Assembly (NCBI RefSeq): GCF_002854065.1
Contig: NZ_CP024147.1
Direction: 5' to 3' (one strand)
From: Escherichia coli
GTDB taxonomy: Bacteria > Pseudomonadota > Gammaproteobacteria > Enterobacterales > Enterobacteriaceae
DNA: 64,000 bases
Shown here: piece after piece, positions 38,799 to 42,564 of the stretch
Numbering within the stretch: the first letter of the stretch is position 1
Layout of the letters: each line of letters begins with the position of its first letter
Program-made: the position numbers and the translations under genes
The notes under the pieces: generated by a model
What the model saw: the letters and a program-made list of their open reading frames with translations, nothing else
Databases searched by the model: none
What the model was told of the DNA's origin: nothing

Positions 38799-39114
38799 AA
38801 TTAATCATTCCTTAAACAAATGTTTAGCGGGCGACAAAGTTTACCCGTCAATACATCGAAACCCAACCTTTTTACGTTTTCATTTTTTAAAGTAACTGTT
38901 TAATTTTCCTGACGCAGATGACACCGCGCTTACAGCCAAATGAATTTAGCGTTACTGGCGAGCCTGGTCTTTACATTAATTATGCAAAATTTATGGATGA
39001 GTTGTTGATATGCCATTGAAATTAAGAAAGCCGTGTAGGCAAGTTTTCCATTTGCCATCTACGCTTAATTTTGAAGGTGTATCACCGGGCACGTTGTTCT
39101 CATCGTCGATAAAA

Positions 39115-39130
39115 TGGCATGAGAGTTGCT
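39115..39130 (+). promoter_or_regulatory. candidate sigma-54 promoter for yeaGH
   Basis: TGGCATgagagTTGCT, close to TGGCAC-N5-TTGCA, ~105 nt upstream of the yeaG ATG. Confidence 0.4.
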
Positions 39131-39233
39131 GTGTTTTAGCAAGAGACGTCGTTCAGTTTACCTCTTCCGGGAGCCTCTACTATTCATATGAACGGCTCTT
39201 AACCTGTGCTAAAAAACGAAAGGACGGCATACC

Positions 39234-41168
39234 ATGAATATATTCGATCACTATCGCCAGCGATATGAAGCTGCCAAGGACGAAGAGTTCACACTGCAGG
39301 AGTTTCTTACCACTTGTCGGCAAGATCGCAGTGCTTATGCCAACGCGGCTGAGCGGCTATTGATGGCTATCGGTGAGCCTGTCATGGTCGATACAGCCCA
39401 GGAACCCAGACTTTCTCGACTCTTTTCTAACCGGGTCATTGCACGTTATCCGGCGTTTGAAGAGTTTTACGGCATGGAAGACGCGATTGAACAGATTGTC
39501 TCTTATCTGAAACACGCGGCTCAGGGGCTGGAAGAGAAGAAACAAATCCTGTATCTGCTGGGGCCTGTGGGTGGGGGTAAATCATCGCTTGCTGAGCGAC
39601 TGAAATCATTAATGCAGCTCGTACCGATTTATGTATTGAGCGCCAACGGTGAGCGTAGCCCGGTCAACGATCATCCGTTCTGTCTTTTCAATCCGCAGGA
39701 AGATGCGCAGATTCTGGAAAAAGAGTATGGCATTCCTCGCCGTTATCTCGGCACCATCATGTCGCCGTGGGCGGCAAAACGTCTGCATGAATTTGGTGGC
39801 GATATTACTAAGTTCCGGGTAGTGAAGGTCTGGCCGTCCATTCTGCAACAAATTGCTATCGCCAAAACAGAGCCCGGTGATGAGAACAACCAGGACATCT
39901 CCGCGCTGGTAGGGAAAGTCGATATTCGTAAACTCGAACACTACGCGCAGAATGACCCAGACGCCTATGGCTATTCCGGCGCACTGTGCCGCGCCAACCA
40001 GGGGATCATGGAATTCGTTGAGATGTTTAAAGCACCGATTAAAGTGCTGCATCCCTTGTTAACCGCCACTCAGGAAGGTAACTACAACGGGACGGAAGGT
40101 ATCTCCGCCCTGCCGTTCAACGGGATTATTCTTGCCCACTCGAACGAGTCCGAATGGGTCACTTTCCGTAATAACAAAAACAACGAAGCCTTCCTCGACC
40201 GTGTTTACATCGTGAAGGTGCCATATTGCTTGCGCATTTCCGAAGAGATCAAAATCTACGAGAAATTGCTTAATCACAGTGAATTGACTCACGCCCCATG
40301 CGCCCCTGGCACGCTCGAAACACTGTCACGTTTTTCCATTCTTTCGCGCCTGAAAGAGCCAGAAAACTCCAGCATTTATTCAAAGATGCGGGTTTATGAT
40401 GGCGAAAGTCTGAAAGACACCGATCCCAAAGCCAAGTCATATCAGGAATATCGTGACTACGCCGGTGTCGATGAAGGGATGAACGGTCTGTCGACGCGTT
40501 TTGCGTTTAAGATCCTCTCCCGCGTGTTCAACTTCGATCATGTAGAAGTGGCGGCAAACCCGGTCCATCTGTTCTACGTCCTGGAACAGCAGATCGAGCG
40601 CGAGCAGTTCCCACAAGAGCAGGCAGAACGCTATCTGGAGTTCCTGAAAGGTTATCTGATCCCGAAATATGCCGAGTTTATTGGCAAAGAGATCCAGACG
40701 GCCTACCTTGAATCCTATTCCGAATATGGGCAAAACATTTTCGACCGTTATGTTACCTACGCGGATTTCTGGATTCAGGATCAGGAGTATCGCGATCCGG
40801 ATACCGGGCAGCTGTTTGACCGCGAGTCTCTTAACGCCGAGCTGGAGAAAATCGAGAAACCGGCGGGGATCAGTAATCCAAAAGATTTCCGCAACGAGAT
40901 TGTTAACTTCGTACTGCGCGCCAGAGCCAATAACAGCGGACGCAATCCGAACTGGACCAGCTATGAAAAACTGCGCACGGTTATCGAGAAGAAAATGTTC
41001 TCCAATACCGAGGAGCTGTTGCCGGTTATCTCGTTTAACGCCAAAACGTCAACCGACGAGCAGAAGAAACACGACGACTTTGTCGACCGTATGATGGAAA
41101 AAGGCTACACCCGTAAACAGGTGCGTTTACTGTGCGAATGGTATTTGCGCGTACGTAAATCGTCTTAA
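39234..41168 (+). CDS. yeaG: PrkA-family protein kinase (644 aa)
   Basis: Walker-A-like GPVGGGKSS near N-terminus; full-length ORF. Confidence 0.9.
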   Translation: MNIFDHYRQRYEAAKDEEFTLQEFLTTCRQDRSAYANAAERLLMAIGEPVMVDTAQEPRLSRLFSNRVIARYPAFEEFYGMEDAIEQIVSYLKHAAQGLEEKKQILYLLGPVGGGKSSLAERLKSLMQLVPIYVLSANGERSPVNDHPFCLFNPQEDAQILEKEYGIPRRYLGTIMSPWAAKRLHEFGGDITKFRVVKVWPSILQQIAIAKTEPGDENNQDISALVGKVDIRKLEHYAQNDPDAYGYSGALCRANQGIMEFVEMFKAPIKVLHPLLTATQEGNYNGTEGISALPFNGIILAHSNESEWVTFRNNKNNEAFLDRVYIVKVPYCLRISEEIKIYEKLLNHSELTHAPCAPGTLETLSRFSILSRLKEPENSSIYSKMRVYDGESLKDTDPKAKSYQEYRDYAGVDEGMNGLSTRFAFKILSRVFNFDHVEVAANPVHLFYVLEQQIEREQFPQEQAERYLEFLKGYLIPKYAEFIGKEIQTAYLESYSEYGQNIFDRYVTYADFWIQDQEYRDPDTGQLFDRESLNAELEKIEKPAGISNPKDFRNEIVNFVLRARANNSGRNPNWTSYEKLRTVIEKKMFSNTEELLPVISFNAKTSTDEQKKHDDFVDRMMEKGYTRKQVRLLCEWYLRVRKSS

Positions 41169-41280
41169 CAACCCTGGCCCGGTACACATGCTACCGGGCC
41201 TACAACGACAGCGAACCGTGGGCCAGAGAAATGGCAACACAGGCGTAGCATACAGTTGGCAAATGTAGTACGGGGGGCAT

Positions 41281-42564
41281 ATGACCTGGTTTATTGACCG
41301 GCGTCTGAACGGCAAAAACAAAAGCATGGTGAATCGCCAGCGTTTTTTACGCCGTTATAAAGCGCAAATTAAACAGTCGATCTCCGAGGCCATTAATAAG
41401 CGTTCGGTGACTGACGTCGACAGCGGCGAATCCGTATCCATTCCCACGGAAGATATTAGCGAACCGATGTTTCATCAGGGGCGTGGCGGCCTGCGCCACC
41501 GCGTACATCCGGGCAATGACCATTTCGTCCAGAACGACCGAATTGAACGTCCCCAGGGTGGCGGCGGAGGTTCCGGCAGTGGTCAGGGCCAGGCCAGCCA
41601 GGATGGTGAAGGTCAGGATGAATTCGTCTTTCAGATTTCGAAAGATGAGTATCTTGATCTGCTCTTTGAAGATTTGGCCTTACCGAATCTGAAACAAACC
41701 CAACAACGCCAGCTGACCGAATATAAAACGCATCGGGCGGGTTATACCGCTAACGGCGTTCCGGCCAATATCAGCGTTGTGCGTTCATTGCAGAACTCAC
41801 TGGCGCGACGCACAGCCATGACGGCAGGCAAGCGGCGGGAACTTCATGCACTGGAAGAGAATTTGGCCATCATCAGCAACAGTGAACCTGCTCAGCTGCT
41901 GGAAGAGGAACGTCTGCGCAAAGAAATTGCAGAATTACGTGCCAAAATTGAACGCGTCCCTTTTATTGACACCTTCGATTTACGTTACAAGAACTACGAG
42001 AAGCGGCCCGATCCCTCCAGCCAGGCAGTGATGTTTTGCCTGATGGACGTTTCCGGTTCAATGGATCAATCCACTAAAGATATGGCTAAGCGTTTTTATA
42101 TTCTACTGTATCTGTTCCTCAGCAGGACGTATAAGAACGTGGAAGTCGTATACATCCGCCATCATACCCAGGCGAAAGAAGTCGATGAACATGAGTTTTT
42201 CTACTCGCAGGAAACTGGCGGCACCATTGTTTCCAGCGCCCTGAAACTGATGGATGAGGTAGTGAAAGAGCGTTATAACCCGGCACAGTGGAATATTTAC
42301 GCTGCACAAGCATCGGACGGCGATAACTGGGCCGATGACTCTCCGCTTTGCCATGAAATCCTGGCGAAAAAATTATTACCTGTTGTTCGTTATTACAGCT
42401 ATATCGAAATTACTCGTCGTGCACATCAGACATTGTGGCGAGAATATGAGCATCTGCAATCTACTTTCGACAACTTTGCGATGCAGCACATCCGCGACCA
42501 GGATGATATTTATCCGGTGTTCCGTGAACTGTTTCATAAACAAAATGCAACAGCTAAAGACTAA
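41281..42564 (+). CDS. yeaH: DUF444 protein, partner of PrkA-type kinase (427 aa)
   Basis: ORF track 41281..42564; Gly-rich low-complexity segment ([12 protein letters not shown]). Confidence 0.85.

Follow-up and report, generated by a model that had tools for sequence, protein, structure and literature searches.

The yeaGH operon of Escherichia coli, which with its upstream spacer occupies positions 38,799 to 42,564 of a 64,000-nucleotide (64-kb) stretch of contig NZ_CP024147.1 (the whole stretch is called the window here), can be set beside several described systems. The glnAp2 promoter resembles that of yeaG in its −24 GG/−12 GC element, in the closed complex formed by sigma-54 RNA polymerase, in activation by phosphorylated NtrC (NtrC-P) at nitrogen limitation, and in sharing its control region with a second, sigma-70-family promoter. 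Unlike it, glnAp2 carries a pair of strong NtrC dyads, near −140 and −108, whereas yeaG has none that fits the NtrC consensus at 9 or more of 14 positions within 300 bp. NtrC is known to act at glnAp2 even from sites moved far away, although that arrangement was engineered (Reitzer and Magasanik 1986). The astCADBE operon likewise belongs to the NtrC/sigma-54 regulon, with a site (OS17) in sigma-54 chromatin immunoprecipitation sequencing (ChIP-seq) and an NtrC ChIP-seq peak (PMC4591121, PMC4066584). Its NtrC-like box lies in a short divergent spacer, whereas the recognisable cluster of boxes upstream of yeaG lies across a gene. The encoded proteins are closest to Bacillus subtilis prkA-yhbH (with spoVR), which shares the PrkA domains PF08298/PF06798 and the DUF444 protein YhbH (a partial match to TIGR02877); the AAA+ Walker A motif of B. 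subtilis PrkA is needed for function (PMC9512850). The B. subtilis genes differ in being expressed in sporulation rather than under NtrC/sigma-54 or sigma-S control, and their PrkA has been described as an ATP-dependent protease that lacks kinase activity, whereas autophosphorylation has been reported for E. coli YeaG. The pairing of YeaG and YeaH also recalls MoxR-type AAA+/von Willebrand factor A (vWA) pairs such as RavA-ViaA, in which an AAA+ ATPase gene stands beside a gene for a vWA protein with a DxSxS metal ion-dependent adhesion site (MIDAS). YeaG differs in that its AAA+ module belongs to the PrkA family, has weak similarity to Lon and is fused to a kinase-like domain.

The best explanation of the locus, held with high confidence, is the yeaGH operon of E. 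coli under the compound control already described in the literature. The genes mipA (start at 38798, minus strand) and yeaG (ATG at 39234, plus strand) diverge from a spacer of 435 nt, and this block is found in 5,425 of 5,426 complete E. coli genomes; the copy in the window differs from MG1655 by two single-nucleotide polymorphisms and is otherwise identical. The sigma-54/NtrC promoter of yeaGH, its companion sigma-S promoter and the control of its leader by the small RNA (sRNA) SdsR are already published, so the finding put forward in the first-pass annotation of this DNA contains nothing new, its interpretation being correct. The same annotation had described the spacer as a long leader. 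The length of 435 nt (38799–39233) holds, but the block is a shared divergent regulatory region, and the 5′ untranslated region (5′UTR) of the sigma-54 transcript, which starts at about 39141, is only 93 nt. An open reading frame (ORF) within the spacer (39010–39237, 75 aa) was rejected because the spacer alignment is rich in insertions and deletions that are not multiples of three.

The sigma-54 element, TGGCATgagagTTGCT, lies on the plus strand at 39115–39130, 104 nt before the yeaG ATG, and fits TGGCAC-N5-TTGCW at 10 of 11 positions; the near-consensus element read there in the first-pass annotation, TGGCATGAGAGTTGCT, is thereby confirmed. In E. coli, the sigma-54 ChIP-seq site OS18, ATGGCATGAGAGTTGCT, was assigned to b1783/yeaG at a distance of 93 (PMC4591121), and in Salmonella a sigma-54 ChIP-chip site, TGGCATGAGAGTTGCTTT, was found at STM1285/yeaG (PMC3844500). 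Salmonella yeaGH was classed as a predicted NtrC-dependent operon and rose 2.5-fold with the promiscuous activator DctD250 (PMC3844500). An NtrC ChIP-seq peak at K-12 (NC_000913.2) coordinates 1864821–1864901 (PMC4066584) corresponds to window positions 39123–39203 (offset 1,825,698, set by the centre of the OS18 motif and the yeaG ATG), and nitrogen run-out raises yeaG mRNA (PMC4664914). Induction at run-out, sigma-54 ChIP and the NtrC peak together bear out the suggested link of yeaGH to nitrogen-starvation adaptation. The operon is driven by two adjacent promoters, one dependent on sigma-54 and the other on sigma-38 (PMC6299236); a promoter of the sigma-70/sigma-S type thus coexists with the sigma-54 promoter and does not replace it as the sole start.

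Conservation was followed in 80 loci with close YeaG relatives (L002–L081), to which Salmonella, Kluyvera and Plesiomonas were added; Enterobacterales YeaG and YeaH form one cluster at 90% identity (P0003), so few extra genera were gained. All 25 aligned Enterobacterales carry TGGCAY-N5-TTGCT without change, 94–242 nt upstream of the yeaG ATG, while its 5-nt spacer and its flanks vary. Carriers include Escherichia, Citrobacter, Enterobacter, Kosakonia, Pluralibacter, Erwinia and Pantoea, and further Tatumella, Serratia, Rahnella, Brenneria and Dickeya. The motif has decayed in two genome-reduced Pantoea symbionts, and in two genomes the region upstream of yeaG has been swapped for unrelated DNA. 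No such motif was found upstream of yeaG in two Yersinia species, Edwardsiella or Plesiomonas (L085), nor in any of the 47 loci from Vibrionales, Alteromonadales, Aeromonas and Shewanella. Two Shewanella loci have weaker matches (9/11) upstream of yeaG, TGGCGCACTTCTGGCA at −325 in L046 and TGGCCCACTTCTGGCA at −310 in L051, which are missing from five other Shewanella and may represent an independent sigma-54 promoter. Of the Salmonella loci, subsp. enterica has an intact element; the reading in subsp. indica is TGGCCT. An intragenic match in the mipA orientation, TGGCACTTGGAGTGCT (38764–38779, minus strand), was rejected: it occurs only in E. coli, one Citrobacter and Superficieibacter, falls in signal-peptide codons and is absent from the sigma-54 ChIP-seq list.

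The companion promoter may be placed by a candidate extended −10 element, TCTACGCTTAA, which is the sole match in the window to the sigma-S consensus KCTAYRCTTAA (PMC5650638), against 0.18 expected. It lies 47 bp upstream of the sigma-54 element in the orientation of yeaG and is conserved in most Enterobacterales. This element is the likely −10 of the published sigma-38 promoter, which would put the start at about 39072 and give a leader of about 160 nt. Two further blocks of the spacer are conserved. One, at 38999–39021, overlaps a consensus-level mipA −35 on the minus strand (promoter-like TCAACA-18-CATAAT); the other, at about 39039–39053, reads GCAAGTTTTGCAAAT in most genera and lies upstream of the sigma-S −10. 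Both are kept in Edwardsiella, which is without the sigma-54 element, and they are therefore tied to the sigma-S or mipA promoters and not to sigma-54.

The published work gives the following model. Sigma-54 RNA polymerase binds TGGCAT-N5-TTGCT (39115–39130) as a closed complex that NtrC-P opens at nitrogen run-out, and the adjacent sigma-S promoter expresses yeaGH during stationary phase and in response to stresses that include acid and osmotic stress. The sRNA SdsR, which itself depends on sigma-S, pairs with the leader late in starvation and lowers translation. McQuail et al. fused yeaG from −93 to +63 to green fluorescent protein and located the pairing of SdsR at −31 to −22, with reduced translation as the outcome, and a compensatory-mutation reporter backed the pairing (PMC10954441). 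The target, CCTGTGCTAA, is present at 39203–39212 (−31 to −22) and its sequence is conserved. YeaG and YeaH act with YcgB/SpoVR to slow metabolism and the resumption of growth.

Several observations weigh against parts of this model. With at most one mismatch, TGGCACN5TTGCW has four matches in the window against 3.68 expected. One of the other three (3587–3602, minus strand) is the published astC sigma-54 promoter, an internal positive control; together with the NtrC-like box about 200 bp upstream of it (3801–3817), it served as a control for the scans. The yeaG motif stands above chance by its position and orientation, its conservation and ChIP in two species. Genomic systematic evolution of ligands by exponential enrichment (gSELEX) with reconstituted sigma-54 holoenzyme did not report the yeaG promoter (PMC8743547). 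A reporter of the Salmonella yeaG region was equally or more active in an rpoN mutant, because the other promoter, of sigma-S or sigma-70 type, masked RpoN dependence (PMC3844500). From the sigma-S start predicted by sequence, 43 bp upstream of the sigma-54 element, transcripts would have to cross the sigma-54 closed complex, and such read-through would fit a reporter that is as high or higher without rpoN. At the protein level, B. subtilis PrkA was found to have ATP-dependent protease activity and no kinase activity (PMC9512850). Finally, no 17-mer matching the NtrC consensus TGCACCAnnnTGGTGCA at 9 or more of 14 positions occurs within the spacer (38799–39233), although enhancer sites of sigma-54 promoters typically lie 80–150 bp upstream, which leaves the enhancer part of the model incomplete.

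In the literature consulted, the NtrC site that activates yeaG has apparently never been mapped (Zimmer 2000 and Reitzer and Schneider 2001 lay outside this check). The first-pass annotation had proposed a search for NtrC sites further upstream. None that reaches 9/14 is present in the spacer, but a cluster of three boxes was found about 1.1 kb upstream, on the far side of mipA, which sits between it and the yeaG sigma-54 promoter. Box 1, TGCACCACCGTAATGCA, lies in the 89-bp spacer between yeaE and mipA, just beyond the mipA terminator. It is separated by 18 nt from the yeaE ATG and by 1,135 bp from the sigma-54 motif downstream, has the identical sequence in MG1655 and is conserved in most Enterobacterales. 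Box centres are spaced by 30 and 22 bp, giving 52 bp (five helical turns) between boxes 1 and 3, so that multiple dyads are present on the same face of the helix; their E. coli scores out of 14 are 12, 8 and 9, and Serratia scores rise to 12 and 12. Box 2 reaches 10/14 in Serratia, Dickeya, Rahnella, Brenneria, Tatumella and E. asburiae. Boxes and terminator keep a single order (box 1, terminator, box 2, box 3) in genera from Escherichia, as E. coli, to Serratia, Dickeya, Rahnella, Brenneria and Tatumella, typically with 52 bp between the centres of boxes 1 and 3. The terminator stem is kept, with altered stem sequences, in all aligned genera, and the T/A runs on both flanks would allow it to act bidirectionally. 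A gSELEX peak for NtrC at K-12 position 1,863,654 coincides with box 1, and purified NtrC shifted a probe from upstream of yeaE in gels; the authors attributed the site to yeaE (PMC8743547).

Other candidate sites were discarded. A block of the spacer, GCAAGTTTTGCA at about −83, scores only 7–8/14 as a proximal NtrC site and overlaps the sigma-S −35 region. Apparent NtrC clusters in loci L013 and L015 fall within coding sequence, and the TGAAC...GTTCA repeats of Rheinheimera, Pseudoalteromonas and Shewanella have no GCAC core and are presumed from their cross-genus conservation to be of coding origin. The integration host factor (IHF) consensus, WATCAANNNNTTR, has no match in 38700–39300.

The reading of the cluster that survives best, to which we would give close to an even chance, is that it serves yeaE only, for example through NtrC repression or a roadblock into yeaE, and that activation of yeaG comes from proximal sites that are weak and unrecognised, or from NtrC acting in solution when NtrC-P is high. 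The yeaE Shine-Dalgarno sequence directly adjoins box 1, which keeps a near-fixed distance from the ATG in Enterobacteriaceae. In a ChIP-exo/RNA-seq study, yeaE belongs to the direct NtrC regulon and is the sole gene down-regulated by NtrC (PMC9853098). NtrC ChIP-seq has its peak at the yeaG promoter and none at the cluster. In Salmonella, which has lost the cluster, the sigma-54 promoter is retained and a box of 9–10/14, the best of the proximal candidates, lies 141 bp upstream of the motif; E. coli has an 8/14 match at the homologous place (38970–38986). Such proximal candidates, however, are not conserved outside Escherichia, Salmonella and Citrobacter, and their frequency does not exceed chance: the classical enhancer interval from −40 to −300 holds a box of at least 9/14 in 5 of 28 genomes, against about 13 expected. 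Nor does service to yeaE account for the persistence of the boxes in at least seven sigma-54-positive genomes that lack yeaE, including spacers between convergent genes with no promoter to serve.

That persistence instead favours a remote enhancer, which we hold tentatively and rate as rather less than an even chance: NtrC bound at 37980–38048 would loop about 1.1 kb across the whole of the oppositely transcribed mipA and would not be an accessory of yeaE only. In Serratia the cluster lies between the convergent 3′ ends of yeaD and mipA with two boxes of 12/14, and in Kluyvera, also without yeaE, it is kept beside an autotransporter gene. Box 1 is the best NtrC match in the window, and NtrC binds the cluster in vitro (gSELEX and gel shift; PMC8743547) and, in vivo, ChIP-exo puts yeaE in the direct NtrC regulon (PMC9853098). 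No sigma-54-like promoter for yeaE was found between mipA and yeaE, the sigma-54 ChIP-seq list has no site at mipA or yeaE, and the motif of yeaG is the only conserved sigma-54 motif in the neighbourhood. The boxes and the sigma-54 element are absent together from the two Yersinia species, Edwardsiella and Plesiomonas, but only two or three of these co-absences are independent.

The evidence that stands against an enhancer beyond mipA is of several kinds. The NtrC ChIP-seq list of Brown et al. has no peak at the cluster (PMC4066584). NtrC ChIP-seq peaks, however, sit on sigma-54 promoters even where the gSELEX peak for NtrC is hundreds of base pairs away; at astC the ChIP-seq peak spans 1830021–1830101, with the sigma-54 site at 1830087, and gSELEX has its peak at 1830436. 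Because these peaks track sigma-54 promoters, the peak at yeaG does not localise its enhancer. Two papers assign the site to yeaE, and ntrC mutants alter yeaE expression, in opposite directions in the two studies (PMC8743547 and PMC9853098). Salmonella keeps an intact promoter bound by sigma-54 although its boxes have decayed and yeaE is separated from mipA by an inserted radical-SAM gene, and in Citrobacter a DNA insertion between mipA and yeaE left the boxes beside yeaE. The inserted Salmonella gene is of the radical-SAM/SPASM type and was seen in two loci (L083, 292–1485; L089, 1786–2982). The tie between the boxes and yeaG is a comparative one throughout.

The history of the region may be glimpsed in Plesiomonas, where yeaD is followed directly by yeaG-yeaH-ycgB (SpoVR) (L085/L086, 2660–8806), without mipA, the sigma-54 element or NtrC boxes. 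This arrangement points to a later arrival of all three, mipA, boxes and sigma-54 promoter, in Enterobacterales. The natural enhancer of yeaG could be the conserved three-box cluster around the mipA terminator, having appeared with mipA in Enterobacterales, an outcome that we consider somewhat short of evenly balanced. If true, yeaG would provide a natural case of a bacterial enhancer that works at kilobase range with a gene in between, and the “yeaE” NtrC site, on which two genome-wide studies differ in sign, would have to be re-read; the remote enhancer is the only part of this analysis that could be new.

The sigma-54 site itself can be read in two other ways. That bound, unactivated sigma-54 holoenzyme (39115–39141) acts mainly as a roadblock or occluder that damps the sigma-S promoter, besides or instead of serving as a promoter, is improbable: it would accommodate the Salmonella reporter and the transcripts that must cross the closed complex from a start 43 bp upstream, but yeaG mRNA rises at nitrogen run-out along with binding of NtrC and RNA polymerase, the −24/−12 element is kept near consensus, as is typical of real promoters, and the position of the sigma-S start on which the argument turns is itself predicted. 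That the motif is a functionless chance match, as four occurrences against 3.68 expected might suggest, is refuted to near certainty by the published ChIP data from two species, its invariance across 25 genera or species despite variable flanks, and its decay in the two Pantoea symbionts.

The sigma-54 leader also contains a predicted stem-loop, which is an addition made here, as no description of it was found in the literature consulted on yeaG. Positions 39169–39175 (GGGAGCC) could pair with 39194–39200 (GGCUCUU), and each of the 21 Enterobacterales leaders compared either is predicted to form this stem or can pair to form it. Its loop varies in sequence and is 16–34 nt long (about 190 nt in Brenneria), and pairs 1 and 2 vary among GU, GC and AU. 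MAFFT misaligned this upstream stem, and it was therefore checked species by species. RNAalifold on 19 leaders returned only an invariant CUGUGCU/Shine-Dalgarno pairing, with no covariation, and an Rfam scan of 37900–39400 at E ≤ 1 returned no known RNA family, the one match being a sub-threshold Burkholderia sRNA.

The protein products were assigned from profile and structure comparisons. YeaG matches PF08298 (AAA_PrkA, 1.3e-187) and the PrkA C-terminal family PF06798 (8.7e-71) over its full length, as well as the NCBIfam equivalog NF011999 (1342 bits). The P-loop noted in the first-pass annotation, GPVGGGKSS, occupies G110–S118 (nt 39561–39587). Its description of YeaG as a PrkA-family kinase with a P-loop is right as to the family, but the P-loop belongs to the AAA+ module and not to the kinase-like domain, and kinase activity is contested. 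E. coli YeaG is reported to autophosphorylate weakly in vitro, as cited in a later paper (PMC6299236), set against the protease activity of B. subtilis PrkA; “PrkA-type kinase” is a family label and not an established activity. YeaG also matches PDB 9xip (“Serine protein kinase”, unpublished) at 7.5e-51 and has a weak match to Lon protease. Entries 9xip, 9xiq and 9xir together contain 30 chains of a YeaG-related “Serine protein kinase” of 692 residues, and no describing paper was found in the literature consulted.

YeaH matches DUF444 (PF04285, 3.5e-191) over its full length and the equivalog NF003708. The Gly-rich linker that had been noted in it is present as a stretch at about residues 93–104, with a disordered segment at nt ~41557–41616. 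By sequence alone, Pfam VWA_2 reaches only E = 0.077. In the AlphaFold model, residues ~240–415 have predicted local distance difference test (pLDDT) values of 80–90, and a Foldseek search with the model gave 124 PDB matches at E ≤ 0.001, the top 50 of which are almost all vWA/MIDAS proteins. The motif D256-x-S258-x-S260 (nt 42046–42060) is invariant in a 41-sequence alignment. The C-terminal half of YeaH is thus modelled as a vWA fold with a DxSxS MIDAS motif, and in structural terms YeaG-YeaH is better described as a pair made up of an AAA+ and a vWA/MIDAS protein. A vWA/MIDAS protein partnered with an AAA+ protein speaks more for a remodelling or protease-adaptor system than for a simple kinase and its substrate, and bears on the question of substrates, which, as the first-pass annotation held, is still open in the literature (PMC6299236). 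Published cofitness links yeaG, yeaH and ycgB in six bacteria, and the Plesiomonas operon of these three genes fits it.

Across L002–L081, from E. coli to Vibrio, Shewanella and Pseudoalteromonas, YeaG is 82–100% identical and YeaH 63–100%, and yeaH is next after yeaG in 78 of the 80 loci. Cluster P0003 mixes YeaG and YeaH and holds two over-long “PrkA family” proteins, P0001 (910 aa, Salmonella) and P0002 (724 aa, E. coli), which are probably fused gene calls that bridge both families in the clustering.

Table 1. Genes and control elements of the yeaE–cdgI region, in window coordinates
Feature	Position	Strand	Basis or remark
yeaD		+	ORFs, Pfam, RefSeq annotation
yeaE	37108–37962	−	ORFs, Pfam, RefSeq annotation
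NtrC box 1, TGCACCACCGTAATGCA	37980–37996		12/14, best NtrC-consensus match of the 64 kb
mipA intrinsic terminator, CAGGGCG-TGA-CGCCCTG	38000–38016	−	Read from sequence; between NtrC boxes
NtrC-like box 2, CGCCCTGTTTTTATGCA	38010–38026		8/14; overlaps 3′ arm of terminator
NtrC-like box 3, TGCCCTGGAAAGATGCA	38032–38048		9/14; TGCAC-N7-GTGCA in several genera
mipA (MltA-interacting protein)	38052–38798	−	PF06629 at 1.5e-54; RefSeq
Conserved block, GAGTyATTGAwATGnCATTgAAA	38999–39021		Alignment; ~65 bp upstream of predicted sigma-S start
Sigma-S-type extended −10, TCTACGCTTAA	39058–39068	+	11/11 fit to KCTAYRCTTAA
Sigma-54 element, TGGCAT-gagag-TTGCT	39115–39130	+	ChIP-seq OS18, Salmonella ChIP-chip, conservation
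5′UTR of sigma-54 transcript, 93 nt	39141–39233	+	Stem, SdsR site, Shine-Dalgarno AAGGA at 39220–39224
yeaG	39234–41168	+	ORFs, Pfam, RefSeq annotation
Intercistronic hairpin, GGCCCGGTA-cacatgc-TACCGGGCC	41176–41200	+	Perfect 9-bp stem, no T-run after it
yeaH	41281–42564	+	ORFs, Pfam, RefSeq annotation
yeaGH operon intrinsic terminator	42569–42602	+	11-bp stem, then TTTTT
cdgI	After yeaH	+	ORFs, Pfam, RefSeq annotation

The gap between yeaG and yeaH, in which the hairpin of Table 1 lies, is 112 nt in the window and ranges from about 37 to 200 nt among genera.

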